From Candidatus Melainabacteria bacterium 17Bon1m (GTDB lineage: Bacteria > Cyanobacteriota > Vampirovibrionia > Obscuribacterales > Obscuribacteraceae), in contig JAVLKG010000009.1 of the NCBI GenBank assembly GCA_032128875.1, positions 1-64,000 of the forward strand: DNA of 64,000 nt. Reading direction: 5' to 3'. The notes under the pieces are model-generated. The model ran no database searches and was not told where the DNA came from. It was given only the letters and a program-made list of their open reading frames with translations. This document shows positions 19,235 to 44,400 of this stretch, piece after piece. Both the position numbers and the translations under genes were made by a program. Numbering within the stretch: position 1 is the first letter of the stretch; every line of letters starts with the position of its first letter.

Positions 19235-21142
19235 TTGAAAAAGCCTGTTGACGAGAAAATCAAGCGAAAAGCCGCTGATTTAGTCGTTGATGAAAACCAG
19301 AAAGCTCCAAACGGCGGCAACGGCGGCGCCGATGCTGCTGTGCGGCAGGACGCTGTAAAACCCGCTAAGAGTTCAAAAGCCGACGTTAAGCCACAAAAGA
19401 TCCGTCCAACTAAAGAGCCCGCAGGCGAAGACGCACCTGCAGCCTCGGCGGCAGTAATGGCAGCGAAAGAACCGCTGTTAGAGTCTGCACCGGCCGATCT
19501 GGCGTCATCGGCAAAATTGCAGGAAGCTTCGGTCTCTGAAGAAACTGCAGAACTGGGTGAACCTCTGGCATCCGCGCAGAAGGTTGCCGAAATTCGAGCG
19601 TTGTTCGATGCCGGGCAAACCTTTGAGGGAGAAGTGACCGCAGTTATCTCGGATGGAAAGGAGGCCAGCGACACTGCCGCAAAAGAGTTGCGGGAGACGA
19701 TGGTGGACGATGCAACGCCATTCAGTCCAAATCCTATGGCGCAAACGGCAGATCCTGTTCCTCTCTCCTCGCTGCCTGCTCCGAATTCCAACGGAACCGC
19801 ATCTGTCAAAGACCCTTTAGTAGGACATGTTCTCGACGGCAAGTATGAAATCACGCGAGTGGTTGGCCACGGCGGGATGAGTGTGGTGTATGAAGCGAAG
19901 CACTTGTTGATGAACAAAGTCATCGCGCTGAAGCTGATGCATTCGCATCTGATTCATTCGGAAAAGGCTGTTTGCAGGTTTCAGAAAGAAGCGCATGCTG
20001 TCGCAAAACTCGATCACTCTGGCGTTATCAAAATCTACGACTTTGGTGTTGCATCGAATGGTTCTCCATTCATTGCGATGGAATTTTTGCATGGGCGACC
20101 GCTAAGTGAGTCTATAAAAATAAATGGTCGTCTCGAAGAAGAGAAAGCGATTTCTGTTTTTAAAAACATCGCAGAAGCACTGGAACACGCCCATGGGCAC
20201 GGCGTTGTGCACCGGGATTTGAAACCGAGCAACATCGTTTTGTCCGACTCAGCAAATTCTTCTGTGCCACCAAAACCAACAGTTGTTGATTTTGGCATTG
20301 CGAAAATGACGGGTGAGGATGGCGAAGATCATTTGAGTATGACGGCTACTGGTGAAGTTTTTGGCAGTCCGCTGTACATGAGCCCGGAGCAATGTGCCGG
20401 TCGCGAAATGGATCAGCGCTCAGATATTTATTCATTCGGTTGCTTGATGTATGAAGCAATTACGGGGCGAACTCCATTCGAAGAGAAAAGTGCGATTGCG
20501 CTTTTCCATCATCACCAAAAGAATGAGGCTCCGAAATTCAGTACGCTTGCGGATCGCCCGAATGTTACTGAAGAGTTGGAAGGCATTATTCTCAAGTGTT
20601 TGGAGAAACATCCCCTCGATCGCTACCAGTCGATGGCCGAGTTGGCGAAAAGTCTGCAAACTCTTGGTGAAAAAGAATCTGTGCCGGAGTTGACGCGCTC
20701 TAAGCGGAAGCGCAATGCAATTATGCTTTGCACTGCGCTTTTGATGGCGGTCATCGGCGTCATTCTCAAAGACCAATGGGCGTTTGTTCAAGGCCGCGTG
20801 ATGTTCTTCGTCCTCTGCTTGCTGATTTGCAGTTGGGGAGCGTTCTCGATGATTCAGCGATATTTCCGAATGAAGGAGTCGATGAATTTGCGTTCTCAGT
20901 CGCTTAACTTCGTGCAGAAGGTCAGACTTTCGTTTACTTTGTTGACGGCATTGATAATGTCTGTGTGGTCTGTCGGCATGATGGTCTACGTTGCAGCGCA
21001 TGCGACAAGCCTGCCCATAATCGATACGCTTGCGCAGTATCTTTGGTTCACGTCATTGATATTGGTGACGCTCTATATCGTTGGAATGATTGCATTCGCC
21101 GCGTACACAGCGATAACAGCGCTGAGTAAAGAGACGACCTAA
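19235..21142 (+). CDS. Ser/Thr protein kinase with disordered N-terminus and about four C-terminal TM helices
   Basis: VGHGGMSVVY, ALKL, HRDLKPSN, DFG, GSPLYMSPEQ; TTG start with SD GGAGG. Confidence 0.9.
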   Translation: MKKPVDEKIKRKAADLVVDENQKAPNGGNGGADAAVRQDAVKPAKSSKADVKPQKIRPTKEPAGEDAPAASAAVMAAKEPLLESAPADLASSAKLQEASVSEETAELGEPLASAQKVAEIRALFDAGQTFEGEVTAVISDGKEASDTAAKELRETMVDDATPFSPNPMAQTADPVPLSSLPAPNSNGTASVKDPLVGHVLDGKYEITRVVGHGGMSVVYEAKHLLMNKVIALKLMHSHLIHSEKAVCRFQKEAHAVAKLDHSGVIKIYDFGVASNGSPFIAMEFLHGRPLSESIKINGRLEEEKAISVFKNIAEALEHAHGHGVVHRDLKPSNIVLSDSANSSVPPKPTVVDFGIAKMTGEDGEDHLSMTATGEVFGSPLYMSPEQCAGREMDQRSDIYSFGCLMYEAITGRTPFEEKSAIALFHHHQKNEAPKFSTLADRPNVTEELEGIILKCLEKHPLDRYQSMAELAKSLQTLGEKESVPELTRSKRKRNAIMLCTALLMAVIGVILKDQWAFVQGRVMFFVLCLLICSWGAFSMIQRYFRMKESMNLRSQSLNFVQKVRLSFTLLTALIMSVWSVGMMVYVAAHATSLPIIDTLAQYLWFTSLILVTLYIVGMIAFAAYTAITALSKETT

Positions 21143-23488: not shown

Positions 23489-23771
23489 GCCTCCTGGGCT
23501 TCCGGCAGTCGGACACGAATTTTGCTCCTTTTGCCAAAATTTGGCGGGCAGGTAGAAGCAAAATCACTCGGGATTGAACTGAGAAGTTTAACGGATAAAC
23601 CGCTTATTGTTGGCAGCTATAGGGAGTAGAAAATAGGGAGCAACCCAGCAATTTGCTAGATTTTATCTTTGGCTTTGAACTTTTTTTCGTCAAATCTCGT
23701 CTTTAACCAGTAAGGGCCAAATTATGGCCCGATACCTTATTGCTCTAAGGCATCTCGAAGGAGAAGTACTA

Positions 23772-24437
23772 ATGAATCTATTGGAAAAACTGCCAGTCGC
23801 CTTATCAGGCTTGTGTTTTGCGGTTCTCTGCAACGGCCCGGCTTTGGCACAGGAAGTTGACCTGCCCGACGGCGTCGAAGACGGACCACCCCCAATGGAA
23901 GGAATGGTGGAAATCAGTCTTGACGGCGACGGCGAGCCCGAATTCACCATCGCCATGGACCCTAACGCCGTGCAGATGGCTGCTCCGGGGGGGCCCGGCG
24001 GACCCCCTCACCGCATGATGATGCGCAGAGGCTGGGGCGGACGAGGTGGAATGAGCTGCGGCGGCGGCGGAGTCGGCTGCCCCATGCTTGGAGCTCTGGA
24101 CCTCACAGATGACCAATATGAGAAGTTCTACGCTCTCAAAAACTCTTTCTTGGATAAAGTCGGACCGAAGATGCTCGAGGTTCGCACCAACGAAAGACAT
24201 CTGAAAGATCTGATGACGCAGACCAATGTGGACGCTAAGGCTGCGCGCAATCTACAGGACAAGATTAACGGCCTTAAGGCTGATCTTGCCAATATGAAGC
24301 TTGAGAATCGCCTGGCCATGCACGATGTGCTCAATGACGAACAACGAAAGAAGATTCGCGATTGGGTCGTTAAGGGTGGTCGCGGCATGCATCATCGCGG
24401 CGGCATGCGCATGAAGATGGAAAAGAAAGACGGTTAA
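23772..24437 (+). CDS. Spy/CpxP family periplasmic chaperone-like protein
   Basis: Signal peptide, Gly/Met-rich segments, LDLTDDQ and VLNDEQR (LTxxQ motifs); SD GGAG. Confidence 0.78.
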   Translation: MNLLEKLPVALSGLCFAVLCNGPALAQEVDLPDGVEDGPPPMEGMVEISLDGDGEPEFTIAMDPNAVQMAAPGGPGGPPHRMMMRRGWGGRGGMSCGGGGVGCPMLGALDLTDDQYEKFYALKNSFLDKVGPKMLEVRTNERHLKDLMTQTNVDAKAARNLQDKINGLKADLANMKLENRLAMHDVLNDEQRKKIRDWVVKGGRGMHHRGGMRMKMEKKDG

Positions 24438-24538: not shown

Positions 24539-24687
24539 TATTGCACGATATTTTTCATCGGCAATCTACTTAATCTATCGTTCCTCCCCTAATTTTCTGA
24601 GCCCGTCCCGTATTAAGATTTCAGTTACAGCCATCGCGGTTTTAGTAATTCGCCTTGCCGACCCTCAGATATTTACGGTGCGTTGAT

Positions 24688-26259
24688 ATGAAATTGACAA
24701 AAGCACTAAGCGGACTTCTGCTCCTGGCAGTTTTACAGGGAGCTTCAGCCAACACAAAATGTTCAGCTGAATGGTACGACAGTGATCGTTCATGCCTGGA
24801 AAGAGCGCGAACGCTCTTTGGTACCGGGCAATTCGACGAGACGCAGAAAGCGCTCGACAAAGGTATTGCGCTCAATCCGCGCAATGCAGAATTGTTTTAC
24901 TTCCGGGGAGTGCTCTACAGCACGTTGAAGCGTTTCGACCTTGCGCTGGCGGACATGGACCAGGCACTTTCGCTGAATCCCACATCTGCCAACTACTATA
25001 TTGCGCGCGGCACGCTTTACTCCAATATGACCAAGTATGACTTGGCTATCAAAGACTACGAGCAAGCTCTACGGTACGAACCTAGAAACGACTCTGCCAG
25101 AGTCAATAAAGAATACTGCGAGGGCGAGCTGCAAAAAATCGCAGCCGCTGCTGCGGGCACCAAGATTTCCAGCGCGCCGAATTTGGGCGTTGCAGTTTCT
25201 ACTGCAGTTCCAATTCCCGTGCCAAAAGCACCCAAGGAAAAACACACCAAGCGCGGCGGCACTGATGTCGCTACTGTCGCCAATGACAGTGCAGAACTCC
25301 AACGCTTGACCAAAGAGCTTGAAGCCAAGCAAAAGCAGAAGGATCAAGAGTCGGCGCTTGCTGCAAAACTCGAAGCTGAGCGTAAAGAAAAAGAAGAGCT
25401 GTTGAGAAAGTTGGCTGAGATAAAGGTTGCTTCCCGAACTGCCGATAAGAAGGCAGAGGAAGAAGCAAAGCCTGAAGACAAGCCAGTTAAGGACAAGTGG
25501 GCTCTCATCATTGGTATCAGCAAATTCAAGAATGAAACGCTGAATCTGAAGTATCCGAGCAAGGATGCGAAAGACTTTTATGATTACTTGATCAGCGATG
25601 GTAAATTCCAGAAAGACCACGTGAAGCTGCTTTTGGATGATCAAGCGACTCGAGGCAACATTCTTTCGGAACTCGGCGACAGATGGCTGCCCAGAATGGC
25701 AGCACCGGATGACCTTGTGCTGATTTATTTCTCCAGCCACGGAAGCTCTTCCGATATGGATGTCGGCGGCGTCAACTACTTGCTCGCCCATGATTCCGAG
25801 CCAGACCAATTGTTCGCCTCCGGATTGGCCATGCAAGATCTCACTCGCGTCATCAAAGGTCGCGTTCATTCAGACAGAGTTGTGCTCATCCTCGACGCTT
25901 GCCACAGCGGCGCTGCTGAGCCTGAAGCAAAAGGACTCGTCCGTGTGAAGAACGTCGATGCCGAAGCAATTGCTCAAGGCACAGGACAAATGGTTATTTC
26001 CTCGAGCACCCCAAGCCAAGTTTCGTGGGAATCGAAAGAAGTGCCCAACTCCGTATTCACCCGTTATCTGATTGACGGTTTGAAATCGAAAAACGGAAAA
26101 GCAACTATTGGTGAAGCGTTCAACTTCATGAAAGACAAAGTGCAAAACGAAGTCTTACGTGCGCGCGGTGTACTGCAAACGCCGGTGATGAAGAGCAAAT
26201 GGCAGGGCACTGACCTGATTATCTCGACACCGCCGATAGAACCAAGGGTCGGGTTGTGA
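24688..26259 (+). CDS. Exported TPR + coiled-coil + caspase-like (C14) peptidase
   Basis: Signal peptide, three to four TPRs, KWALIIGISKF, YFSSHGS (His) and LDACHSG (Cys) dyad, SVFTRYL. Confidence 0.88.
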   Translation: MKLTKALSGLLLLAVLQGASANTKCSAEWYDSDRSCLERARTLFGTGQFDETQKALDKGIALNPRNAELFYFRGVLYSTLKRFDLALADMDQALSLNPTSANYYIARGTLYSNMTKYDLAIKDYEQALRYEPRNDSARVNKEYCEGELQKIAAAAAGTKISSAPNLGVAVSTAVPIPVPKAPKEKHTKRGGTDVATVANDSAELQRLTKELEAKQKQKDQESALAAKLEAERKEKEELLRKLAEIKVASRTADKKAEEEAKPEDKPVKDKWALIIGISKFKNETLNLKYPSKDAKDFYDYLISDGKFQKDHVKLLLDDQATRGNILSELGDRWLPRMAAPDDLVLIYFSSHGSSSDMDVGGVNYLLAHDSEPDQLFASGLAMQDLTRVIKGRVHSDRVVLILDACHSGAAEPEAKGLVRVKNVDAEAIAQGTGQMVISSSTPSQVSWESKEVPNSVFTRYLIDGLKSKNGKATIGEAFNFMKDKVQNEVLRARGVLQTPVMKSKWQGTDLIISTPPIEPRVGL

Positions 26260-26339
26260 CGAGCAATCGATAAGCGTTCTGCAATCAACGATTGCAGAAC
26301 GCAATCAACGATAAACGCCAAACAATAAACAATAAATTC

Positions 26340-26378
26340 AAACATGCAGCTATCTCTTGAAGGAGCTGCATGTTTTTT
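26340..26378 (+). terminator. Terminator-like hairpin between convergent genes
   Basis: AAACATGCAGCT-N12-AGCTGCATGTTT followed by TTT. Confidence 0.55.
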
Positions 26379-26417
26379 GTTGAACGTGCTGGGCAAAAAT
26401 CGAAAGTAAATCTAGTA

Positions 26418-28658
26418 TCAAAAACGTTTTCGAGGAGAGCTGCCAGACGCTTTTTGGCCGAGCTGGCGCAGGGTCATAGCATGCTGCTCTTGTGTTTGTG
26501 CCAGCATCTTATTTTCCAAATTGCTCTTGGTCTGAATATCCACCGATTGCTTGTACAGAGGCTCGGCTAGTTCAAATTTCCCTTGTGCGCAATAAACGTC
26601 AGCAAGTTTATTTAGGCAAATTGCGACTTTTGGATGATCCGGACCGAGCGCTTTGATGCGAAACGCTAGATAGCGTTTGCCAATGGCTTCAGCCTTTTCC
26701 ACCATTTGCTGATCGTTGTACATGTCCATCAAGTTTTCAAACGCGCTCGACATTTGCGTACTGGAGGCGTCTTCTTTTTTCTCGTAGATTGCGAGTGCTT
26801 CTTTGAAAAGCGGCTCTGCCTCGACGTAGTTGCCCAGGCGGTAATGCAGCGTCGCAAGCCGATTGAGGGTAAGCGCGACCTCACTGTGTTTTGAACCCAA
26901 TGATGCCTTCAAATTTTCCGCGGCGCGTTCGAAAAGCGGCACTGCTTTTTTGTATTTCTTTTGCTCGAAGTTGAGCATTGCCAGTTCGTGCAGTGTTAGT
27001 CCTACATCCTGGTGCTCCGGTCCATATGCGCTTTCTCGTATTGCCAGGGCACGAGTCGCTAGACTTTCAGCCTGCGCATAGTCTTCGTTGTACCTGTGCA
27101 AATCAATGAGTTTGTCGAGAACATTTGCAACGTCGGGATGTTTGGACCCAAGCGCTTTTTCGTAAACAGCCACCAGCCGTTGCCAAAGTGGAAGTGCCTC
27201 GTCGTAGCGATTTTGCAGTAGTAAAACTTCTGCGAGTTTGCTTAGGGGTTGCCCGATTTCAGGGTGCTCTGCTCCAAATGAATGCTCGGAAATTGTCAAC
27301 GCCCGAGTGAGCAACTTTTGCGCTTGCGAATAATGTGCTTGCGATTGAAAGACCATCGCTAAGTTGGTAAGACTCTCACCGACATCCGGGTGATACTCGC
27401 CAAGAATGCGTTCCTGAGCCTTAATCAGACTCTCCAAGCATTCTTCCGCCTCAGCTAACTTGTTCTGTGATCTGAAGATTGCCTCAAGGTGTTTTAAATA
27501 ATCGACCAGAGTTTTTTCGTATGCCGGGTCTTTTCCTTCCTTCAATTTCTCCAGGTTGGCAATGGCGCGAAGAAGCAGTGCTTCTGCTTCTTCAAATCTT
27601 CCTGTCTCGTAATAAAGTGCGCCCAAGTGATTCAACTGCGTGCCAACATTTGGATGCTTCGGACCATAATGTTTTTCCTGAATGGCCAGGGCGCGTTTTA
27701 AGAGTGGCTCGGAGACAGCGAAATTCTTTTCTTCAAGATAGGCTTGCGCCAAATTTTGCAACGTTTCAACCAACGCCGGATCATCTTTTGCGTAATTCTT
27801 TTCCTGAATCGCGAGATATCGCTGAAACAGCGGTGCCGCCTCCAAATACTTGCGCTCCGACTGAAGCGTCTTTGCCAGGTTGAGAATGTTTATCGCCATA
27901 TCAGGATGATTGGGACCGAGCGCTTTCTCCGCGATATTTAGAAGGCGCCTGAATATCGGCTCTGCTTCATATGTACGACCCATGTCTCGATACAAAGAGC
28001 CTAGATTGGATAGGGCCGTGACGACCTCTGGATGCGCCGGTCCGAGCGCCGCTTCTCTTATCTGAATCGACTGGCGGAAAAGATACTCCGCCTCCTCAAG
28101 CCGATCGGTGTCGACGAAAAACATAGCCTGGTCGTGCAGAATGCCGCCAATTTCGGCGCTGTCGGCGCCGAGCGTAGCCTCTGTGACATGGAGAGACTGA
28201 ATGAATAAGGGCTCCGCCTCTGTGTAATTGCCGCGCGCGTGCTCCAACTTCGCAAGATTGCGTAAGCAAGCCGCTACGTATTCATGCTGTTCGCCAAATG
28301 CTTTCTGGTAAAGAGTCAAAACACGCCTGCAGAGAGGTTCGGCGTCGTCGAATCTGCCCTGCACGTAGCAAAGGGTGAAAAGGTGAGTAAGGCTGGTAGC
28401 GACATCTGGATGTTCAAAGCCGAGAGTAGACTCCCTCAAAGCGAGCGAACGTCGGAATAGCGGCTCCGCTTCGACGTAGCGCTTTTCCTGAAAGCAAAGT
28501 TCCCCAAGGCGGTCGAGCGTCAAGGACAGGCGCTTATCCCCCTTAGGAAACTCCTCAGCCAGCTTGAGCGCCCGCCGCCACATAACTTCAGCTTCGGCGT
28601 AATTGCCGAAAGTCGCCGCATGCTCGGCGTCTGATTTCAGCTGTTCCCAGGTGCTCAT
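26418..28658 (-). CDS. Tetratricopeptide repeat protein (42-aa kinesin-light-chain-type repeats)
   Basis: Many repeats of AEPLFxRxLxIxExxLGxxHPxVAxxLxxL. Confidence 0.92.
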   Translation of the reverse strand: MSTWEQLKSDAEHAATFGNYAEAEVMWRRALKLAEEFPKGDKRLSLTLDRLGELCFQEKRYVEAEPLFRRSLALRESTLGFEHPDVATSLTHLFTLCYVQGRFDDAEPLCRRVLTLYQKAFGEQHEYVAACLRNLAKLEHARGNYTEAEPLFIQSLHVTEATLGADSAEIGGILHDQAMFFVDTDRLEEAEYLFRQSIQIREAALGPAHPEVVTALSNLGSLYRDMGRTYEAEPIFRRLLNIAEKALGPNHPDMAINILNLAKTLQSERKYLEAAPLFQRYLAIQEKNYAKDDPALVETLQNLAQAYLEEKNFAVSEPLLKRALAIQEKHYGPKHPNVGTQLNHLGALYYETGRFEEAEALLLRAIANLEKLKEGKDPAYEKTLVDYLKHLEAIFRSQNKLAEAEECLESLIKAQERILGEYHPDVGESLTNLAMVFQSQAHYSQAQKLLTRALTISEHSFGAEHPEIGQPLSKLAEVLLLQNRYDEALPLWQRLVAVYEKALGSKHPDVANVLDKLIDLHRYNEDYAQAESLATRALAIRESAYGPEHQDVGLTLHELAMLNFEQKKYKKAVPLFERAAENLKASLGSKHSEVALTLNRLATLHYRLGNYVEAEPLFKEALAIYEKKEDASSTQMSSAFENLMDMYNDQQMVEKAEAIGKRYLAFRIKALGPDHPKVAICLNKLADVYCAQGKFELAEPLYKQSVDIQTKSNLENKMLAQTQEQHAMTLRQLGQKASGSSPRKRF

Positions 28659-28859
28659 GAGGTCGCTAGAAGTTGCCTGTGCCGGAAAGGGTGAAGTGTG
28701 GTCGAAAACCGGGCTATGCCCAGCACCGCCCTTACGGTTATACCCGCCCGCTGAAGGGTTCTTAAAACCCGGAAATAGGGGCTGTCAGGCGATCAGCCGG
28801 TGCTCCAGATGCGGTAATATCACGACTTGAAACCCTGCCCGGCTTTGGCGTCGAGAACA

Positions 28860-31800
28860 ATGAGCGATATTACCGAATTAAATAGACTGGTTGAAGCGAT
28901 TGAGAACGAATCAACCAGGGTTGAGGCGCTCCGGCATTTACATGCTCTGGCGGAACACCTGGAGGCACGGATGCCCATCGCCGGGATTTCGAAGGCTTCC
29001 AAGAGCACTGAGCAGCAGAAGCTTGCAAAAGACCCTCTGGCGGCTATGCTCAACCTCAAAGTGATTCCAATTCCAGGGTCGGCTTCGCCGTTGAAATTGT
29101 TTTTGCATACGGCCGTGTTCTCGCCGGAAGAATGGGCGAAGACTTTTGCAGAAGGATTGTTGAAGAAGCCTGAGCTTTTCCGGGGTAAAACTCTCGTTGA
29201 GCTTGGTACTGGCTCGGGCTGGATTAGCTTGCTTATGCTAATGCGCACGCAGGCGGCGTCTATTTTAGGTCTGGATATCAATCCTATTGCTGTGGCGATT
29301 GCGAGATTGAACTCCTGGTTGAATGGCACTACCAGCGATGGCACTCTGATTAATTCGCAATTTGGTGCTCCATTCACTCAGGCGTTTCTTGCAAAAGAGT
29401 CTGATTTGCTTGGCGAGCCGCTTTCACGCAAGGCGAAGTTCGACCATATTATTGGTTGCATTCCGCAGGTTCTTCACCCAGACCCTCGCAAGCTTTCCGA
29501 CGAGTCGGGCGAACGCTCGCACAAGGATTTGTACGACCTCAGCAATTATTGCTTCCAGCAAGGCATCTTGGAAGACCGATTTGGTTTGCCGTTAATTGCT
29601 CGCGCTCTTGAGGAAGCCCAGTTGTGCCTTAATCCGGGCGGTCGTCTGACGCTGGTTTTGGGGGGCAGACCAGGTCCACAGGCTATTGATCAAATGTTCC
29701 GTAGACGCGGTTGGGAGCCGACTTTGATTTGGAGCCGACGCATTCAGCAGGCTGATGATACTGATCTGGTTTCTCTGGTTGAGATCGAACGCACGCACCA
29801 AATACGGTTCAACTTCTTCCTCTCACGCGATTCGCAAAATCCCGTTTCAGCCGAAACCGCCGTGACGGTGCTAGGCAAGAATGAGTCTATTTATCATGAT
29901 CTGCTGGTATATCAGGCTGAGACAGAGCACGAGAATCCGACGTTCGGCTTCGTCAGCAATTTGCACAAATTGGGACTCGATCGTTTGCGAAAGGAATTGG
30001 ATTTCTCCATTATTTCGGAAGAAATGGTCAGCTTCCTCAATCGCTTTTCGCATGAACTGTTGGCGCACAAAACACTTCCGTATCCGCACGAGTGCGGTGA
30101 TATGAGCTTGCGGACAGCACTCTCCAGGTTTTTGTCCAACTATTGCCATCATCCAACTAAACCCGAAACTTTGTTCGTTGGACCAGAACGCGCACAATTA
30201 CTTGCACTTGTCCTCAAAGCGATTCTACCGCCTGATTCAACAGTGCTTTTGTCCTCATCTCTTGAATCGGTGTATCGAACCACAATTGAATCCCTGGGGC
30301 TGAGAGTTATTCTCGGCAACGATGACTTGAGCGAATTGATTCATCTGGATCAGCTGCTCAAGCCCGCTGCTTGCATACTTGCGCCACAGCAATTAGCGCA
30401 TCCTTCGCAACTGATGCTTGATCATTTGTTTGCGCAAGCACGTGCGAATCCTGATCGTTTTTATTTAATTGATGATTCTGCTCAGTTTAATATCGGCTCT
30501 GAGTTAAACTCCAATATGACTCTGAGAATGGCTGGACGCCAGCGATTGCCTGAGAATTTGGTTTTTCTCTATGGTCTGATCAAGAACACCGTTTTTCCGG
30601 ATTTTGAATTGAGCTTTTTGGTGAACGCACCCGAAGCGTGGATGCCTGCGCTGGAGGTCGGCGCTGAGTTGACCTATTCGCGTATTCCATATCAAGTTCA
30701 ACTCTATTATCAGTGGTTGTTCGAAGAGCTGCTTGCCTTTCCGTTTCCCGAGGCTGATGTGCCGCCGATGCGCAATGAATCGAACGGGCGAGTCTCTAAA
30801 TTGATTGAGGAAATCTCGGCTGATCCGGTGTTTGCACCAAAACCTATTTCGCTTGAAGACGAACGCTTAATAAGGTTCGACTACGGTGAGGTTGAGTATC
30901 CTGTGCCGGAACTGTTGATTAAGGGGGTCTTCAAAGGATTTCTCGAGCAAGATTCCGACTTGCTGCCGTCCGTTGTTCGGCATCGCGTCAAAGCCTATTT
31001 GGAATTCACTCGCAGAACAACAGTAAGCGAAGATCGAATTGTCCTCGGCAAGGGTGTATTCCCAGTGCTTGCTGCCTTGATGGCGACCCTGACGCAGCGC
31101 CTTGGCCGCCCACCTGTCGTCGCTTTGCCCCTGGGGAGTTATGGTCCGCTGTACACGCTTATTGCGTATCACGGAGGAAGAGTCGTTGAAGTAAAAACTG
31201 ATGAGAAGCGAGGTTTTCTCCTGGACGTCGCTTCCATCGATTCGTTGGAAGTACAGCCGGATCTTGTTTGGCTGACGCAACCTAACAATCCATCCGGTCT
31301 TTTCTATGACTCGCAAGCCGTCGAGAGTCTTTACAAAGCGTGCTCCCAACGCGGCATTTACATGCTCGCCGACGAAATTTTCTTCCTGCTCAGCGACAAT
31401 AGATTGGGTGAATGGACACCGCAGTCCTTGAGTTTTCTTCCACTGATAAACACAGATGGTGGCAAATACCTTTTCCTGACCGATGGTGTGGCGAAAGCTT
31501 TTGCTGCCGGCGGATTGCGCGCGGGATTTTTAGTTTGCCCTGATGCAAGTTTTGCCTCGCAAATTCAAGCTTTGACGCCGTTGCCGCCGCGTTCCACGCT
31601 ACGCGCCTGGGATACTCTGTATTCTGCCTTCCTCGAAGAGTCGCCGCACTTGCTGGTTGATGTGAAGGAAGAGCTAGATGGATTGAAAAACTATCTCATC
31701 GAATTGCGCAGCGAGCTTTCGCGTCGGCGCAAAAAGCTTCAGACCTTATTTAAGGAACATGATGTCGATGACAAAATGGACACGCCTTATCGTGGTGGCA

Positions 31801-31994
31801 TCTTCCTGATGGCGAAATTGGGCAGATTTCGCAACCAGTTGGCGATGGAGAAGCAACTCCTTATAAATGAAGATGCGTGGAGCCGCACGCCCGAGTGGAG
31901 TCGGGTTTCTTTTAGCGTGCCTCCAGATAAATTCGACGAAGCTTTCGATCGTCTATCTGCGTTTTTGGGTTCAAAGAAAAAAGTGACCAGTTAG
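28860..31994 (+). CDS. Plant-type methionine S-methyltransferase fused to PLP-dependent aminotransferase class I/II domain
   Basis: FSPEEW..TFAEGL, VELGTGSGWIS, GLDINP, IIGCIPQVL, LSNYC..QG..EDRFGL.LIARA, GGRPG, QADDTD; C-terminal QPNNPSG, ADEIF, GVAKAFAAGGLRAGF, RVSF. Confidence 0.85.
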   Translation: MSDITELNRLVEAIENESTRVEALRHLHALAEHLEARMPIAGISKASKSTEQQKLAKDPLAAMLNLKVIPIPGSASPLKLFLHTAVFSPEEWAKTFAEGLLKKPELFRGKTLVELGTGSGWISLLMLMRTQAASILGLDINPIAVAIARLNSWLNGTTSDGTLINSQFGAPFTQAFLAKESDLLGEPLSRKAKFDHIIGCIPQVLHPDPRKLSDESGERSHKDLYDLSNYCFQQGILEDRFGLPLIARALEEAQLCLNPGGRLTLVLGGRPGPQAIDQMFRRRGWEPTLIWSRRIQQADDTDLVSLVEIERTHQIRFNFFLSRDSQNPVSAETAVTVLGKNESIYHDLLVYQAETEHENPTFGFVSNLHKLGLDRLRKELDFSIISEEMVSFLNRFSHELLAHKTLPYPHECGDMSLRTALSRFLSNYCHHPTKPETLFVGPERAQLLALVLKAILPPDSTVLLSSSLESVYRTTIESLGLRVILGNDDLSELIHLDQLLKPAACILAPQQLAHPSQLMLDHLFAQARANPDRFYLIDDSAQFNIGSELNSNMTLRMAGRQRLPENLVFLYGLIKNTVFPDFELSFLVNAPEAWMPALEVGAELTYSRIPYQVQLYYQWLFEELLAFPFPEADVPPMRNESNGRVSKLIEEISADPVFAPKPISLEDERLIRFDYGEVEYPVPELLIKGVFKGFLEQDSDLLPSVVRHRVKAYLEFTRRTTVSEDRIVLGKGVFPVLAALMATLTQRLGRPPVVALPLGSYGPLYTLIAYHGGRVVEVKTDEKRGFLLDVASIDSLEVQPDLVWLTQPNNPSGLFYDSQAVESLYKACSQRGIYMLADEIFFLLSDNRLGEWTPQSLSFLPLINTDGGKYLFLTDGVAKAFAAGGLRAGFLVCPDASFASQIQALTPLPPRSTLRAWDTLYSAFLEESPHLLVDVKEELDGLKNYLIELRSELSRRRKKLQTLFKEHDVDDKMDTPYRGGIFLMAKLGRFRNQLAMEKQLLINEDAWSRTPEWSRVSFSVPPDKFDEAFDRLSAFLGSKKKVTS

Positions 31995-32050: not shown

Positions 32051-32902
32051 ATGCCATACACGGCCGAAATCAGCAGAACCAATCCATCGTGTTTTTTATT
32101 CCTTATAGATCAATCCGGGTCTATGCAAGAACCGTTCGGCACGAAAGACGGTGCGGCTGGCGGCAAGACCAAGGCGGAGAGCCTTGCGGATGCCATCAAT
32201 AGATTGCTTCAAAATCTGGTCATCAAATGCGCGAAGTCAGACGGAATACGAGATTACTACCATGTCGGCGTTATTGGATACGGTGGCACAGGCGTCGGAC
32301 CAGCGTTTGGCGGCGCTTTGAAAGATAAGGAGATGGTTCCTGTCAATGAGATTGCTAACAATCCTATGCGCGTCGAGCAGCGCGTCAAAAAGGTGGACGA
32401 CGGTGCCGGCGGTTTGGTCGAGCAAAAAATCAAATTTCCCGTTTGGTTTGACGCGAAGGGTGAGGGCGGAACACCGATGTGCACCGCGTTCATCACCGCC
32501 AACAAACTCCTGACGAAGTGGCTCGCGGAGCATCCTGACTGTTTTCCGCCCATCGTTATCAACATCTCTGATGGCGAATCGTCGGACATGGACCCCTATC
32601 AGGCGGCTATGGATTTGATGAATCTGTCGAGTACAGATGGGCAAGTTTTGCTTTTCAATCTCCACCTTTCGTCCTCGAGCGAGAAAGCAATCGAGTATCC
32701 CAACGACGATGAGAAATTGACTGAAGAGCACTCGAAGGTTTTGTTCAGCATGTCCAGCGTTTTGCCGGAGTACATGCAAAAGATGCTCTCGGCCGAGGGC
32801 GTCCCGGTAACGTTCGCGACACGAGGATTTGTTTTCAACGCTGACCTTGTCTCAGTAATTCGATTCCTCGACATCGGCACAAGACCGGCAAATCTTCGCT
32901 GA
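32051..32902 (+). CDS. vWA domain protein (TerY-like)
   Basis: MIDAS motif FLIDQSGSM, GGTPM, NISDGE; SD GAGGA. Confidence 0.85.
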   Translation: MPYTAEISRTNPSCFLFLIDQSGSMQEPFGTKDGAAGGKTKAESLADAINRLLQNLVIKCAKSDGIRDYYHVGVIGYGGTGVGPAFGGALKDKEMVPVNEIANNPMRVEQRVKKVDDGAGGLVEQKIKFPVWFDAKGEGGTPMCTAFITANKLLTKWLAEHPDCFPPIVINISDGESSDMDPYQAAMDLMNLSSTDGQVLLFNLHLSSSSEKAIEYPNDDEKLTEEHSKVLFSMSSVLPEYMQKMLSAEGVPVTFATRGFVFNADLVSVIRFLDIGTRPANLR

Positions 32903-32960
32903 GTCGTTAACTCATCGGACGTTCGAGAAAACCAGACGAACGTTCTATCAAAGGAATAGC

Positions 32961-33701
32961 ATGCACGTCACCGGAAAATTATTTTGGATGCCCAAGAAGG
33001 GCAATTCAATTGAAGAGTACGAAGACGCTGCGTATCCGGTTGAGTCATTCGAAGTTGATGTTGCTGAATTCAAATGCGCGGTCGCAGACGGTGCGACTGA
33101 AACATCCTTTGCAGGGTTTTGGGCTGCACTTTTGTGCGAAGGATTTGCGAAAGGCTACGCAATAAAAGAACTGCGGCAGACTTGGAACGATGCAGTTAGG
33201 CAAAAAGAATTACCCTGGTACGCGGAAGAAAAACTAGAAAAAGGTGCGTATGCCGCGCTTGTTGGTTTGCACTTGAAGAAGCCGCGTGGGAAGAAGAATC
33301 CTTATGTTGTGGAGGCGACTGGAGATTGCTGTATTCTGCACGTGAGAGAAAACCAGGTGCTGTCAGCTTTTCCGATATCGAAGTCGGATGATTTCAATAA
33401 TTCTCCTGCGCTGATTTGCAGTCACGAGTTTGCGTCAGTTGATGCGCAAATGCAAAAACACATGACGAAGGGTGAATGGAAGGACGGTGACTCCTTCTTT
33501 CTGCTTTCAGATGCGCTTGCCTGCTGGGCGCTCAAACGTCAGGAAGAATTGCAGGACTTGGCCAATGTTTTGCAGAACGTTGAAACGCAAGAAGACTTGA
33601 ATCGTTTGGTAGATGAGGAAAGGCAGCTGATTTTGGAAGATGGCCGCCCATCAATGAAAAACGACGACGTTACGCTTTTGTGTGTGACCGTTTGTAGCTA
33701 G
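32961..33701 (+). CDS. PP2C-like protein phosphatase (TerY-P associated type)
   Basis: AVADGATE, GDCC, FLLSDAL, NDDVT metal-binding Asp motifs. Confidence 0.8.
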   Translation: MHVTGKLFWMPKKGNSIEEYEDAAYPVESFEVDVAEFKCAVADGATETSFAGFWAALLCEGFAKGYAIKELRQTWNDAVRQKELPWYAEEKLEKGAYAALVGLHLKKPRGKKNPYVVEATGDCCILHVRENQVLSAFPISKSDDFNNSPALICSHEFASVDAQMQKHMTKGEWKDGDSFFLLSDALACWALKRQEELQDLANVLQNVETQEDLNRLVDEERQLILEDGRPSMKNDDVTLLCVTVCS

Positions 33702-33971: not shown

Positions 33972-35726
33972 ATGAAGCAATTGTTTCAGGCGTGTTTGAC
34001 GTTGGGTGATGGAACAGGCAGCAATGGTGGTCACGACCTCTCTGCTTACACCGACGAAGAACATCTCTCTGGTAACCGCAAAAGGTTGAGCAAAATGAGC
34101 GGGCAGTACGCCGCTCTTAAAAGTGATGCGAAGGCTGCTCAGTTTTCGCAAGCAAAAATCGACTGTAATCCACCATCGACTGCTGTTGCAGCGACGAATG
34201 CAACATATTCGTATCAGGCATCTTCGAACATATTACGACTGCCTGTTGAAGACGAAGAATACATTGAGAGTTTGGTTGATATCGCTATTCAGACTGTTTC
34301 AGAATGCGACGAACTAAGCGAAGACATTGATCTACTCGCGGATGCTGCAGCGAAAGTTGCCTCAAAAATATCGCGAGCAATCACGACTGAAATCGAAACG
34401 GCAAGCACGACTCCAGTAGCCCCTACTAGCGAGTCGAATGTGCAAGAAGTTGTAGATCCGAATGCAATTACGGCAGAACTACCGGTGCTGAATTTCGAGC
34501 CACCGAAAGACGAAAATCGCAGCGGACTTAGTGGCAGCTTCCCGCGTCAAAATAGCAGCGGGCGAAAAATGTCTCATTGGACAAATCGTAAGGCTGCCGG
34601 AGCAGACGCCTGGGATACGCGCGTCGAATCCGGGCTGAAGGCCTACGAAAACAATAAGAAGTACACCAGCAGTTATGACAATCTGCCAATTATCGGTTCG
34701 GAGATGCCCGAAGGTAGCAGTTTTATTGAGCTGCCGGATGCGTCAATGGAAATTGAAACTTTTGGTTCTGGCGAGGTGAAGATGATCACTTCGTTCGACA
34801 ATCAAGGAGCAGGAATTCGCAGACTTTCAACGTTGCGCAGTTCGATGCGAATGATTGAGCGTCACGATAATGACGAACTTCATAAACCGCTCGACCCTAG
34901 CAACTCGTATGATGCGTTCAACTCTTTCGTTTCATATAAGTCTGAGAGCGAGTCGAAGAAGATGTCTTTAGCGGACGAAACCTCTGCTGAGTTCGCTGCA
35001 TCATTCGAGCAGAATTCAGAAATTGATGTGCAGGCAGTTTCACAAATCGACGAGTCTACAGGTTCCGAATTTATTGATTCTGTTTCGGATGATTTGCTCG
35101 GATGCTTGGATGAGCTGCTCTCAGAATGCATGGATGCGGCTATCGCGTATGAAGATGTCGTTTCGCAACTGGACAATACAATCGAAAGCCTCGAATCAAA
35201 CACATCGGTAATTTCGTTTGCTCCAGAGCATCAGGATGCTTCGTTCGTTGAAGGCTATGCGGGCAACTTCTCCGTGACACTGGCCGAATCGCTCGCCGTC
35301 TGCGAAAAAGCAGACGTTGCAGGTCACGTTCATGATCAAATCTGTTTCGATCCCAAAGCATTTGCGCCACATACGATTGATGGCGAGCCGATTGAAGCAA
35401 GCTGTGTTTTTGATGCGACCGAAAAGCTTTCTTTCAAAGCTTCCGAAAACATCCTCTCTAACCTCGAATCGATGTTCAACCTCGATCCGCTTTCGCAAGT
35501 TGACGAAGTTGCGTTGGCGCCGCAAACCAATAACGACGGTGAAGTGGAAATTGAAAGTGTTTGTGTAGTTTCTGATGAAGATTGCGAAATGCTTGAAATT
35601 GCTGCGGTAGGAGGAAAGCCTTCGCGTCAAAAAACGAAGGGCACATCACGCTCGAAGAAAAATCAAACGCGCAAAGAGAAAAAGAGTGGTAAAAAACGCG
35701 CAGCAGCTGCGGCTGCAAACGCTTAG
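33972..35726 (+). CDS. Acidic, probably disordered hypothetical protein with Lys/Arg-rich C-terminus
   Basis: 584-aa ORF rich in S/E/D, ending in KPSRQKTK...KKRAAAAAANA. Confidence 0.6.
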   Translation: MKQLFQACLTLGDGTGSNGGHDLSAYTDEEHLSGNRKRLSKMSGQYAALKSDAKAAQFSQAKIDCNPPSTAVAATNATYSYQASSNILRLPVEDEEYIESLVDIAIQTVSECDELSEDIDLLADAAAKVASKISRAITTEIETASTTPVAPTSESNVQEVVDPNAITAELPVLNFEPPKDENRSGLSGSFPRQNSSGRKMSHWTNRKAAGADAWDTRVESGLKAYENNKKYTSSYDNLPIIGSEMPEGSSFIELPDASMEIETFGSGEVKMITSFDNQGAGIRRLSTLRSSMRMIERHDNDELHKPLDPSNSYDAFNSFVSYKSESESKKMSLADETSAEFAASFEQNSEIDVQAVSQIDESTGSEFIDSVSDDLLGCLDELLSECMDAAIAYEDVVSQLDNTIESLESNTSVISFAPEHQDASFVEGYAGNFSVTLAESLAVCEKADVAGHVHDQICFDPKAFAPHTIDGEPIEASCVFDATEKLSFKASENILSNLESMFNLDPLSQVDEVALAPQTNNDGEVEIESVCVVSDEDCEMLEIAAVGGKPSRQKTKGTSRSKKNQTRKEKKSGKKRAAAAAANA

Positions 35727-41466: not shown

Positions 41467-44400
41467 TCAATGCGATTGAAAGCTCTCTTGGTGTTCCGTT
41501 GTTTCTCGCTTGCGAAACTTCTGCAGTAGTTTGTCGAACCAAACATAAACTACGGGCGTTATATAGAGTGTCAAGATTTGAGAGACTATTAAGCCCCCCA
41601 CAACGACTAAACCCAGTGGACGGCGTGTGTCTGCTCCAGCACCAGTTCCAAACGCGATCGGGAGCGTACCCATCAGCGCAGCCATGGTCGTCATCATGAT
41701 TGGACGGAATCGCACCAGGCAAGCCTGGTAGATAGCCTCTGCCGCTGGCATGCCCTTCTCTCGCTCAAGCTCGAGCGAGAAGTCGATCATCATGATGGCG
41801 TTTTTCTTCACAATGCCAATTAAGAGAATCAGCCCGAGGAAGCCGTAAATGTCCAGGTCAACATGGAAGATTAGCAGCGTAATCATCGCGCCAAGACCGG
41901 CTGCTGGTAAGCCTGAAAGAATGGTAAGCGGGTGTATGAAGCTTTCATAGAGCATCCCCAAGATTACGTAGATGATGACTGTAGCAAGCAGAAGCAACCA
42001 GCCGAGGTTCGAGAATGAATCTTGGAATGTCTTTGCTTGTCCTTGGAAATTCACACTTACAGAGCCCGGAACGCTAGCGTTGGCTTCTTGTGTAATATGA
42101 TCGACAGCTTGCCCGATAGAAAATCCAGGCTTTAAGTTGAACGAAATCGTAGCGGAAGGAAATTGTCCTAAGTGGTTGATGGCCAGAGGTCCGGTGCCGG
42201 GAGTGAGTTGCGCGATTGCACCAAGCGGAACCATCTTTCCACTGGTTGAGCGGATGTAGAGTTTTGACAGTTGCACTGGGTCGCGCTGATACTGCGGCTC
42301 AAGCTCGATGAGGACTTTGTATTGATTGGTTGGCGCGTAAATTGTCGAGATCTGCCGCTGTCCATAAGCGCTGGCTAGCGTTTGCTCGACTTGATCTTGA
42401 GTGATTCCGAGAGCTGCAGCCATTGCCCGGTTGACCGTAATGTCAATCTGGGGTGTGGCGGATTGAATATCGGTGTTGACGTCTGACAGTTCTTTGAACC
42501 CGTCCATCTTTTCTTTGAGCGCGTTTGTTGCTTTGTACAATTCATTCTGATCTGGCGACATCAACGTCACCTGATAGGAGCTTTTCGAGGACATGCCGCC
42601 GATTCTGATTGCGGGCGGGACAGTGAGGAAAGTGTTGATGCCCGGAACTTGCGCAAGTTTTGGACGCAACTCTTTGACTATTTCGTCCGCTTTCTTTGTA
42701 CGTTCTTCAAATGGTTTTAGCGCAATCAAAATGCGGCCGGCGTTGCCAGAGGCACCACCGATGCTGGACATCACGCCTTGAATGCTTTCGTTCTTCTCGA
42801 TGATGGCAGATACTGCTCTTTGGTGCCTGCTCATATTTTCAAATGAGATGTCTTGCGCCGCTTCTGTCGAGCCTGATATCTGACCGGTGTCTTGGGTGGG
42901 CATAAAGCCTTTCGGCACGATCATGAACAACCAGGCGGTCAGAGCGATGCTGACTATTAACAAGGCGAGAACAATATTGGGGTGCGAAACCGAAATTTTG
43001 AGCGTTCTTTCGTATTGTCTGGCCAGCCACTGCCAACCGTCTTCCAAAGCTCCTAACCATGCAATTTGCTTTTCCGCTGTTTCAGGGGTTAACCAGCGGC
43101 TTGACAGCATTGGTGTCAGCGTTAGAGAGACAAAGCCTGAGATCAATATGGAAACTGCCATTGTGACGGCAAACTCATTGAAAAGTCTGCCGACAATTCC
43201 ACCCATCAAAAGTATGGGTAAAAATACTGCCACCAGTGACAGTGTCATACTAATGATGGTGAAAGTAATTTCGCGTGTCGCTTCGATTGCAGCTTGAAAG
43301 GGTTTTTTGCCCATTTCCATGTGCCGGACTATGTTCTCCAGCACAACCACCGCGTCGTCGACAACGAATCCGACAGATAGTGTTAGAGCCATCAGCGATA
43401 GATTGTTTAAGCTGAACCCGAGTAAATGCATCGCCGCAAATGTGCCGACGAGCGAAGTTGGTAATGCGAGACTCGGAATAACTGTGGCAGGAACATTGCG
43501 CAGGAAAAGAAATATAACCAACACCACCAAGCCGATGGTGAGCACGAGTGTAAACTCCACATCCTCGATTGACGCCCGAATTGACGTGGTGCGGTCATAG
43601 AGAACATCCATGTTGACCGAGCCAGGAATTTGATTGCGCAGCTCTGGAAGAATGGCTTTGATTGAGTCAACTATTTCGACGGTGTTGGTTCCTGGCTGCC
43701 GCATAATTGCCAAAACAATCGCGCGCTTGCCGTTGTACCAACTCGCTTGCTTGTCGTTTTCCACGCTGTCCGTGACCTTGCCGAGGTCGGAAATGACAAT
43801 CGGTGAGCCATTCTTGTACATGACGACGAGCTTTGAAAATTGCTCTGCGTTGGACAGCGGACCATTGGTGCGAAGCATAAATGCCGAGTGCGGACCATAA
43901 AGTGTCCCAGCCGGAACGTTCACGTTGCCTTTTGAAATGGCGTTGGTGACGTCTTCGAATCCAACGTTTCTTGCGGTCAAAGCATCAGGACTCAAGTCGA
44001 TACGAACGGCATATTTCTGTCCGCCGAAGACATTGACCTGCGCCACACCTTCCAGCATCGAAAGACGCTGGGCGACGGTTGTTTCGGCGTACTCATCGAC
44101 TTGGTAAAGGGGCAGCGAATCCGAACTCAACGACAAGTACAAGATAGGTGAATCCGCTGGATTTACCTTCCGGTAAGTTGGTGGCGTCGGCATCACCGGG
44201 AGTAGCCTGGAGGCAGCGGCGATTGCGGTTTGAACATCCTGTGCGGCGGCGTCTATGTCGCGTGTGAGATCGAACTGCAAGGTGATTGAAGTCGAGCCTA
44301 AAGAACTCGTCGAGTTCATTGACGAGATACCAGCAATTGTCGCGAACTGGCGCTCGAGCGGTGTCGCGACGGCGTTTGCCATCGTCGCTGGATTGGCCCC

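Follow-up and report, generated by a model that had tools for sequence, protein, structure and literature searches.

Does the aminotransferase part of a plant-like methionine S-methyltransferase (MMT) still work as an enzyme when the protein comes from a bacterium? The question is raised by a gene in a 64,000-nucleotide stretch of DNA from Candidatus Melainabacteria bacterium 17Bon1m (contig JAVLKG010000009.1, positions 1 to 64,000; hereafter the window), which encodes a protein of 1044 residues. Ever since the 1999 work of Bourgis et al., MMT has reportedly been treated as a methyltransferase with a vestigial aminotransferase tail. A sequence-only reading of the window had taken the gene for a full-length plant-type MMT whose aminotransferase domain looked catalytically intact. 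The overall explanation that we consider best, and which we hold with moderate confidence, is that the protein is a long-form MMT relative with a composite pyridoxal 5'-phosphate (PLP) site and is bifunctional.

The longest open frame begins with a TTG at 28827, which would add 11 residues and give a protein of 1055 residues; since the closest homologs are 1044 residues long, the ATG at 28860 is favoured as the start. Every motif listed in the sequence-only reading could be located in the translation of this single frame. On the methyltransferase side these are FSPEEW (starting at residue 87), ELGTGSGW (114), GCIPQV (199), EDRFGL (238), GGRPG (268) and DDTD (299), together with LSNYC, which occurs twice (227 and again 425); on the aminotransferase side they are NNPSG (809), DEIF (838), GVAK (876, containing Lys879), GLRAG (885, containing Arg887) and RVSF (1015). 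Unlike the proteins of the MmtN type, which consist of a single domain of about 300 residues, the 1044-residue protein has two modules beyond the methyltransferase. No NCBIfam equivalog reached its own cut-off in a scan of the whole protein. Coordinates of all features are collected in Table 1.

A HMMER search of 1.84 billion cluster representatives returned 1362 matches at E <= 0.001 and 121 at E <= 1e-30, and about sixty among the matches listed are full-length proteins with 28-37% identity. One of them is the methionine S-methyltransferase of Selaginella moellendorffii (XP_024516277.1, E 8.8e-85), whose best matching stretch pairs residues 78-902 with its residues 92-935 and in which the homology, as in plant MMTs in general, is collinear across all three modules described below; the plant-MMT architecture proposed from the sequence is thereby borne out. 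A profile built from the first 410 residues of the query and 11 relatives was run against chains of the PDB. The best solved match is MmtN (7vvv, E 2.7e-22), covering MmtN residues 18-298 and thus nearly its whole length, followed by a gentamicin methyltransferase (E 5.7e-9), while the best HemK/PrmC chain has an E value of only 1.2e-4. As the best hits are not of the HemK/PrmC type, the MMT assignment stands. Pfam gives weak, generic methyltransferase signals over residues 85-178.

Conservation was examined in a MAFFT alignment of 312 long forms, namely the query, 109 close relatives (at least 45% identity), 79 distant non-plant proteins and 123 land-plant MMTs ranging from lycophytes to angiosperms; only rows of 950-1200 residues were aligned, so that fragments and longer fusions are left out. 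In the methyltransferase domain the GxGxG motif is formed by G116-x-G118-x-G120, and at the positions of the MmtN ligands of S-adenosylmethionine (SAM), Asp69 and Cys121, the query has Asp139 and Cys200. Of these, Asp139 is found in 108/109 close, 78/79 distant and 123/123 plant rows and Cys200 in 109/109, 73/79 and 123/123. Positions conserved at 90% or more in each of the three groups number 56 in the methyltransferase, as against 8 in the middle and 11 in the C-terminal module. Median identity to the plant proteins is 38.8% in the methyltransferase, 24.4% in the middle and 21.2% in the C-terminal module; the segment ahead of the methyltransferase (residues 1-75) shows a median identity of 19% to plants and 32% to the close clade. 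The protein is a relative of the long-form ("Group III") MMTs.

From profile comparisons, the architecture is best described as three modules, not two: behind the methyltransferase lie two aminotransferase copies, the first degenerate and the second a complete one of class I. In the C-terminal copy residues 711-1032 match Pfam Aminotran_1_2 (PF00155) with an E value of 1.1e-21 and 77.8 bits, the cut-off being 19.7. This copy carries Tyr761, Asn810, Asp838, Phe841, Lys879 (codon 31494-31496), Arg887 and Arg1015. In phmmer alignments to the solved aspartate aminotransferases 1o4s and 1gc3, its NNPSG, DEIF, GVAK and GLRAG fall on NNPTG, DEIY, the Schiff-base Lys motif and GWR-G, and Asn810, Asp838, Lys879 and Arg887 align with catalytic residues of both; RVSF, with Arg1015, lies on RLSF in the 1o4s alignment, the only one that reaches that far. 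Lys879 thus occupies the Schiff-base position, as had been supposed from the motif alone. The AlphaFold2 model of the full-length protein (pLDDT 91.5, pTM 0.90) has its best Foldseek matches among the aspartate aminotransferases (1o4s, E 4.3e-19, TM(target) 0.80-0.82).

The middle segment, which the sequence-only reading had called a degenerate PLP-fold region, is a real second copy. Comparison by hhalign of residues 365-655 with residues 656-1044, for which 189 non-plant rows were offered and 103 kept, gave a probability of 97.9 and an E value of 6.4e-13, and a profile of the middle segment alone finds the solved aspartate aminotransferases 2gb3 (E 4.2e-6), 1o4s (2.9e-4) and 4my5 (7.4e-4); Pfam gave no match there. 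The copy keeps Tyr408 within a Y-x4-G-x3-LR motif, Asp538, Lys575 and the TYSR of residues 605-608. Lys575 falls on the Schiff-base Lys of 4my5, and Glu583 falls on its phosphate-binding Arg, which argues against binding of PLP by the middle copy itself. Although it lacks the phosphate Arg, the copy retains Lys575 and Asp538 even in plants: Lys575 (30582-30584) is Lys in 108/109 close, 117/123 plant and 33/79 distant rows (15 of the distant rows have Arg), and Asp538 (30471-30473) is kept in 109/109 close, 71/79 distant and 122/123 plant rows.

In the alignment to 1o4s, Tyr408 falls on the Tyr of its K-Y-x4-G-x3-LR motif. In aspartate aminotransferases this residue ('Tyr70*') is lent by the dimer partner to the phosphate of PLP. 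In our protein the two copies are asymmetric in this respect, as the middle copy keeps the partner-type Tyr408, whereas Gln stands at the corresponding position of the C-terminal copy. A similar relation may hold for Arg608, which follows Lys575 by 33 residues; the partner-supplied substrate Arg of aspartate aminotransferase shows a spacing of about 33 residues, and by this analogy Arg608 may be its equivalent. When residues 365-655 and 656-1044 were submitted as separate chains to complex prediction, with PLP included and with a custom alignment, the complex scored 0.87 against 0.26 for the best of 3 controls, a mark reached by 58/80 solved complexes and 2/110 mismatched pairs, although this calibration was made with neither custom alignment nor ligand and the pass may reflect likeness to solved aminotransferase dimers. 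At least 92% of the contacts agree between runs, and the partner pLDDT is at least 79. The predicted interface comprises on the C-terminal side residues 763-771, 878 and 882-887, which flank Lys879 and include Arg887, and on the middle side residues 403-409, with Pro407 and Tyr408, and 603-613, with T605-Y606-S607-R608. Modelling therefore predicts an internal pseudo-dimer of the two aminotransferase copies, in which they share a single composite PLP site.

If such a composite site is in use, its residues in both copies would be expected to share one evolutionary fate, and this is the pattern observed. Lys879 is present in 109/109 close and 75/79 distant rows (184/188 non-plant rows) and in 0/123 plant rows, where the position is taken by L (60), F (38), T (7), S (7), P (4), Q (2), M (2), C (1), V (1) or a gap (1). 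The statement in the sequence-only reading that the plant domain is considered vestigial is hence supported. Arg887 is conserved in 109/109 close and 77/79 distant rows and in 8/123 plant rows, and Tyr761 is Tyr in 107/109 close and 74/79 distant rows and Asn in 117/123 plant rows. All 1044 positions were scanned for residues kept in at least 90% of close and at least 80% of distant rows and in at most 20% of plant rows, after removal of five degenerate rows (P0186, P0193, P0195, P0196 and P0199) from the distant group. Fifteen positions were found, 13 of them within the two aminotransferase copies: Y606, S607, R608, R672, Y675, G676, E677, G732, Y761, K879, A883, R887 and F982. Besides Lys879, then, 12 pocket residues are kept in bacteria and lost in plants; three of these (Y606, S607 and R608), mostly lost in plant MMTs, belong to the middle copy, and R672, Y675, G676 and E677 form the N-terminal substrate lid (the 'GE' motif).

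A signature of 11 sites was followed through the 189 non-plant rows, query included: 166 are identical at all 11 sites, 18 differ at one or two sites by conservative exchanges (Y/F/W/H, S/C, F/Y) and 5 differ at 5-10 sites. The four non-plant rows that lack Lys879 are among the five degenerate rows, which have lost 5-10 of the 11 sites, those of the middle copy included. On the tree, Lys appears to have been lost about three times, in plants together with P0195, in P0186 alone and in P0193 together with P0196. Full-length proteins from named genome loci, 54 of the Obscuribacterales type and 17 from Myxococcota, Acidobacteriota and others, carry the signature in 71/71 cases (69 identical, 2 with Y606W). 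The residues of the site, those of the middle copy among them, are thus retained together or lost together, which is the pattern of a working active site. As judged from these residues, the alignment shows that the tail is apparently vestigial in plants only, and that a complete PLP site is retained in 184/188 non-plant long forms.

The distribution of the long forms was surveyed in one genome per GTDB species, of which 214 encode a relative, and the best 80 loci were analysed. Loci L004-L065 are nearly all labelled Candidatus Obscuribacterales, Melainabacteria, Obscuribacter or Cyanobacteria, the protein of L004 being 98% identical to the query; the others among the best 80 come from Myxococcota (Corallococcus, Myxococcus, Pyxidicoccus, Citreicoccus, Hyalangium, Vulgatibacter, Polyangia), Holophagaceae, Solibacteraceae and Planctomycetota. 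Among Obscuribacterales genomes, 73/107 have a match at E <= 1e-30, as do 30/39 of those of high quality and 10/12 of the window's genus; absence from an incomplete genome is no proof of loss. In an even sample of the phylum only 5/401 genomes have a match, and in the small-genome family f2 0/169. A FastTree phylogeny of 87 rows (the query, 16/55 Obscuribacterales-type loci, 16 other named loci, 42/79 distant proteins and 12/123 plants) falls into two halves. In one, plants are nested among 27 metagenome proteins with a support of 100, a clade for which cluster and ESM Atlas look-ups gave no label more specific than 'methionine S-methyltransferase'; in the other, the query lies in an Obscuribacterales clade (support 100) that is sister to a Myxococcota/Acidobacteriota clade (support 96). 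Being unrooted and quick, the tree shows grouping and not direction. The query stands outside the plant clade, and the term 'plant-type' used in the sequence-only reading is right for the architecture, not for the clade.

Some further relatives deserve mention. Longer proteins of 1400-2446 residues have no Pfam domain in their extra N-terminal parts. P0234 (712 residues), P0251 (632) and P0266 (593) seemingly consist of the middle and C-terminal copies without the methyltransferase, the sole Pfam domain of P0234 being Aminotran_1_2 at residues 403-704; provided that their genes are complete, such proteins may stand for the unfused ancestral type of the PLP module. Other bacterial fusions of a methyltransferase with an aminotransferase were noticed among ESM Atlas clusters, as leads only, with feature scores of 0.77-0.86: proteins of about 618 residues in Actinomycetota (Aminotran_1_2 with Methyltransf_11/23), of about 471 residues in Bacillota, and a class V aminotransferase with a UbiE-type domain in Pseudomonadota.

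What, then, would the protein do? By homology, the first module would most likely act as an MmtN/MMT-type methyltransferase converting methionine and SAM to S-methylmethionine (SMM) and S-adenosylhomocysteine, a default reading that follows from the 56 shared positions and from the identity to plant MMT. The second module, having lost a PLP site of its own, would lend Tyr408 and T605-Y606-S607-R608 as a dimer partner would, and the third, a complete class I aminotransferase with Lys879, Asp838, Asn810, Arg887, Arg1015 and Tyr761, would together with it make up the internal pseudo-dimer with a single active site, one that would be under purifying selection in bacteria and in decay in land plants. 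At this site a second, PLP-dependent reaction on an alpha-amino acid probably takes place. Since Arg1015, the residue for the alpha-carboxylate, is kept, the substrate would be an alpha-amino or alpha-keto acid, and since the PLP module is fused to a methyltransferase, SMM or methionine is the obvious second substrate; the simplest coupling would be one in which the product SMM, or else methionine, is taken over. The conserved Arg608 and Arg672 point to a dicarboxylic partner, for example glutamate or 2-oxoglutarate, and with it to true transamination, which would be the likeliest chemistry. These parts of the proposal differ in strength. Membership of the family, the homologies of the domains and the pattern of conserved residues are observed and the pseudo-dimer is predicted, whereas PLP binding, the second reaction and its substrate are inferred, as is the scheme of the sequence-only reading in which methionine is methylated and the SMM then transaminated or cleaved. 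Binding of PLP is likely and PLP-dependent catalysis somewhat probable; that the substrate is SMM or methionine can be put forward tentatively, and that the reaction is transamination a shade more tentatively still.

A more specific form of this proposal involves a gene found next to the MMT gene in many relatives. In 29/54 Obscuribacterales-type loci with at least 1 kb of downstream sequence, a gene for a short-chain dehydrogenase/reductase (SDR) of 288 residues (adh_short, E 9.4e-36; the best NCBIfam match, a PRK06197-type oxidoreductase, is below its cut-off) follows the MMT gene directly on the same strand, with its start at -81 to +73 bp relative to where the MMT match ends (for example L013:13184-14050, L023 and L038), and the arrangement looks operon-like. 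One might speculate that bacterial long-form MMTs are two-step sulfonium enzymes in which SMM is made and then processed at the composite PLP site, for example to 4-dimethylsulfonio-2-oxobutyrate, that the SDR co-transcribed in many Obscuribacterales could reduce the product, and that plant MMT is a descendant left with the first step only; we regard this full scheme as rather unlikely. If true, it would place a sulfonium-acid route absent from pathway maps of dimethylsulfoniopropionate (DMSP) and SMM in non-marine, non-photosynthetic relatives of the cyanobacteria, in Myxococcota and in Acidobacteriota.

Several observations, beyond the manner in which the complex score was calibrated, weigh against a bifunctional enzyme acting on sulfonium compounds. 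PLP chemistry is not needed for methyl transfer, because plant MMT methylates methionine without the Lys, and no biochemical data on any bacterial long form were found in the literature. The Tyr three residues after the Asp is replaced by Phe841, a residue found as Phe in 109/109 close and 73/79 distant rows; in aspartate aminotransferases this Tyr225-type residue hydrogen-bonds the O3' of PLP. Two of the MmtN residues reported to bind methionine have no conserved counterpart: Glu127 falls on His206 (Asn in plants) and Arg132 on Lys211 (Ala in plants), positions that are not conserved in long forms, plants included; a further methionine-binding residue, Glu250, falls in an insertion-rich stretch where the alignment is ambiguous. 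Ten methyltransferase positions otherwise common to plants through Myxococcota are changed in the Obscuribacterales clade alone, among them E318 to H/N, N266 to I/V, S85A, S93G/A, F178A/V and G244P. Residue 318 is H in 96 and N in 14 members of the close clade, query included (Asn in the window's genus), and E in 123/123 plant and 61/79 distant rows. Because of such clade-specific substitutions, the methyl acceptor is not certain to be methionine. In the same clade G1009 is changed to R, six residues before Arg1015, and as far as charge can be judged from residues, the extra positive charges (R608, R672 and R1009) and the clade changes would suit a cationic sulfonium substrate poorly. Finally, the window gives no contextual support: no sulfur, SMM, DMSP or methionine genes lie within its 64 kb, and Rfam finds no riboswitch at gathering score anywhere in the window, nor, over 28500-29000, any match with E <= 1.

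An explanation that we hold to be unlikely is that the PLP domain is a sensor or a structural or oligomerisation module, binding PLP and perhaps an amino-acid effector and tuning or scaffolding the methyltransferase, whose sole product SMM would serve an SMM cycle with a homocysteine S-methyltransferase. There is a precedent in the GabR/MocR regulators, whose aminotransferase-like domains bind PLP together with an amino-acid effector in the form of an external aldimine. In plant MMT, a working enzyme, the domain is dead and is nonetheless retained, which means that in plants at least it serves a non-catalytic purpose; and a sensor would conserve the same Lys and ligand-binding residues, which adds to the points against a second enzymatic activity. 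The genome could also close an SMM cycle. It encodes a YitJ-type bifunctional homocysteine S-methyltransferase/methylenetetrahydrofolate reductase (NF006396, 675 bits against a cut-off of 453), and a second PF02574 match lies on the same contig in a frame of 1255 residues, read as MetH from its size. The sequence-only reading had proposed a search of the genome for downstream SMM and DMSP genes; the window has none, and the YitJ-type protein and the putative MetH are candidate users of SMM. The NCBIfam matches to the MocR-like PdxR (E 3.8e-9) and YczR (E 8.1e-8) are weak and far under their cut-offs, and MocR-type proteins match no better than ordinary aminotransferases do. Moreover, the Pfam scan of the whole protein detected no DNA-binding or other output domain, and the catalytic set, the substrate lid and the partner-derived residues are kept and lost together, which is typical of an enzyme. 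On balance, catalysis at the composite site is the reading that we prefer.

If catalysis is granted, its order could be reversed. The PLP site might interconvert methionine and 4-methylthio-2-oxobutyrate and the methyltransferase act on a non-amino thioether, for instance a 2-hydroxy acid formed with the SDR as reductase, which would make the protein part of a fused transamination route to sulfonium acids. The clade-specific loss of Glu318 and the nine other methyltransferase changes, the frequent downstream SDR and an Arg-rich pocket suited to dicarboxylate or neutral substrates would all fit such a route. However, the 56 methyltransferase positions are common with plant MMT, and Glu318 aligns with MmtN Glu256 and not with the reported methionine-binding Glu250. 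The window's genus has no SDR gene beside the MMT gene, the best SDR in the genome being 36% identical to that of the relatives, and for methionine salvage, considered as a supply of the keto acid, the acireductone dioxygenase (MtnD) was not found in the 93%-complete genome, though MtnA is present (415.9 bits). We consider this alternative improbable, and SMM formation followed by a PLP-dependent reaction is retained as the working proposal.

It is more doubtful still that the composite site carries out a PLP reaction on SMM other than transamination, either decarboxylation to DMSP-amine or an alpha,gamma- or beta,gamma-elimination resembling that of 1-aminocyclopropane-1-carboxylate (ACC) synthase with release of dimethyl sulfide. 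The class I fold does include a decarboxylase, CobD, whose model matches below its cut-off (TIGR01140, E 2.5e-13), the ACC synthases 7dlw and 1ynu appear at Foldseek ranks 29 and 41, and the exchange of the Tyr225-type residue for Phe841 is a hint of non-standard tuning. According to PMC7496086, SMM is decarboxylated by BurI and then transaminated by BurD in Burkholderia and Streptomyces. Against this, no enzyme-specific match was obtained and aspartate aminotransferases score better throughout; according to PMC9135737, DMSP is made by only 1/4 strains with a bacterial Group III MMT. A transaminating site thus stays ahead of this alternative in our assessment.

That the protein is no MMT at all and joins a HemK/PrmC/PrmA-type protein methyltransferase to an ordinary aminotransferase, as the database names '50S ribosomal protein L11 methyltransferase' and 'methylase of polypeptide subunit release factors' and the barely passing Pfam matches to PrmA (24.5 bits, cut-off 22) and MTS (24.3 bits, cut-off 23; both with E of about 2e-5 over 53-82 residues) might suggest, is scarcely credible, given a PrmC score of 30.9 bits against a cut-off of 199.1 (TIGR03534), a lead of 13 orders of magnitude for MmtN as best solved match, the three-module collinear homology to plant MMT and the presence of GCIPQV at the position of the HemK/PrmC/PrmA substrate motif. 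That motif is NPPY in HemK/PrmC-type methyltransferases.

Gene content of the window (Table 1) includes MFS, LTXXQ, caspase-TPR, TPR, VWA-like, PP2C-like, kinase, RND pump and HSP20 genes. Upstream of the MMT gene lie the large tetratricopeptide repeat (TPR) protein on the opposite strand, the TPR-caspase gene, the LTXXQ gene and an MFS gene. An LTXXQ homolog lies upstream on the same strand in 40/55 Obscuribacterales-type loci, and since it directly adjoins the MMT gene in several of them (L017, L055, L057 and L058), the caspase-TPR/TPR pair looks like an insertion into an older LTXXQ-MMT order. In the 17 named loci from outside the Obscuribacterales no conserved partner was seen, the adjoining ORFs of about 186 residues not being mutually homologous. 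Downstream of the MMT gene, at 32051-33701 (+) and 33972-35726 (+), same-strand ORFs of 283, 246 and 584 residues occupy in the window's genus the place that the SDR gene has in many relatives; the first has a weak VWA_2 match (E 8.9e-4), the second is a PP2C-like phosphatase and the third has no Pfam match. We rejected the RNA-labelled runs as evidence of transcription, as the contigs of the three runs are 9-10 kb long and of even depth and carry genes of both strands. The contigs of all three runs break at about 26280-26437, where the caspase-TPR and TPR genes converge on a short gap, and the contig of the DNA run crosses it, which may be a coverage or hairpin effect. A shift in composition is seen at 62001-64000, with a GC content of 0.558 and an AT skew of -0.31 compared with about 0.50 and about -0.05 elsewhere.

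Table 1. Features of the window, with positions in the 64,000-nucleotide stretch.
Feature	Position	Strand	Basis or remark
Whole gene, 1044-residue long-form MMT homolog	28860..31994	+	ATG 28860, stop TAG 31992-31994; full-length homologs
N-terminal helical segment, residues 1-75, poorly conserved	28860..29084	+	AlphaFold2 helices 4-63
MmtN/MMT-type SAM-dependent methyltransferase domain, residues 78-355	29091..29924	+	N-domain profile against PDB, 7vvv
Middle degenerate copy of class I aminotransferase large domain, about residues 385-655	30012..30824	+	hhalign to C-terminal copy; profile against PDB
Middle-copy motif T605-Y606-S607-R608	30672..30683	+	Predicted contact with active-site loop 883-887 of C-terminal copy; bacteria keep, plants lose
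Complete class I aminotransferase domain, residues 656-1044	30825..31991	+	Pfam PF00155; 1o4s/1gc3 alignments; Foldseek
LTXXQ/Metal_resist (CpxP/Spy-like) gene	23724..24437	+	Pfam; context only, no known functional link
TPR and caspase (Peptidase_C14) protein	24655-26259	+	Between LTXXQ and MMT genes
746-residue TPR_12/TPR_10 protein	26418-28658	-	Between LTXXQ and MMT genes
Two Ser/Thr protein kinase genes	14603-16840, 19235-21142	+	Ordinary, unrelated to the MMT finding
RND efflux pair, AcrB-type (1029 residues, 1081.9 bits) and HlyD-type adaptor	41467-45908	-	Ordinary, unrelated

The family itself and the existence of bacterial long forms are already known. According to Peng 2022 (PMC9135737, citing Williams et al. 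2019), a 'Group III MMT' occurs in plants and in some Deltaproteobacteria and Oligoflexia, and the role of its SMM is hard to predict. The view in the sequence-only reading that bacterial MMTs are short holds for the characterised enzymes and does not hold in general, as long plant-like MMTs are described there. A full-text literature search found nothing on MMT in Melainabacteria or Obscuribacterales or on a PLP site in bacterial MMT, and no description of the tail as a fused pseudo-dimer of two aminotransferase copies. The split between an intact bacterial and a decayed plant PLP site was likewise not found in the literature covered; Bourgis 1999 and the supplement of Peng 2022 lie outside that coverage and may bear on it. 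With the tail vestigial only in plants, a second activity becomes directly testable in the bacterial protein. About a hundred Obscuribacterales genes, at present named 'aminotransferase class I/II-fold PLP-dependent enzyme', 'L11 methyltransferase' or 'methylase of polypeptide subunit release factors', gain an annotation relevant to function, and a well-sampled order is added to the few bacteria in which long MMTs have been described.

The bacterial Group III MMTs of PMC9135737 are likewise long dual-domain proteins, not linked to DMSP, nonribosomal peptide synthetase (NRPS) or methionine genes and unclear in role, and related loci were found here from Myxococcota, Acidobacteriota and Planctomycetota; the available text of that paper, its Supplementary Fig. 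11 excluded, makes no mention of Melainabacteria or Obscuribacterales, of a duplication of the aminotransferase fold or of PLP residues being retained. MmtN (7VVV/7VVW/7VVX), the best solved relative of the N-terminal domain, shares the GxGxG motif and the conserved Asp69 and Cys121, and differs in lacking both aminotransferase modules and in having Glu127 and Arg132 in place of His206 and Lys211. The class I (Ib-like) aspartate aminotransferases of Thermotoga and Thermus (1O4S and 1BJW/1GC3) share the fold (Foldseek TM(target) 0.75-0.83), the Lys, Asp, Asn, two Arg and a Tyr motif that the middle copy would supply as partner; they differ in sequence (15-19% identity) and in having Tyr for the Phe after the Asp, and what is a partner subunit in these enzymes is a fused degenerate copy of the same chain in ours. 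The aminotransferase fold and its Lys are used for purposes other than transamination by GabR, which senses an effector, and by ACC synthase, which performs an elimination from a sulfonium amino acid; the window protein has neither a DNA-binding domain nor a sequence signal specific to either. Plant MMT (EC 2.1.1.12), represented by the Selaginella protein and 122 other land-plant sequences, has the same three collinear modules in about 1040-1090 residues. It belongs to another clade and has lost the Schiff-base Lys throughout and R887, Y761 and Y606-R608 for the most part, whereas the clade-specific methyltransferase changes belong to the window protein. This comparison suggests that plant MMT arose from a bifunctional ancestor of the bacterial type through the loss of one activity.

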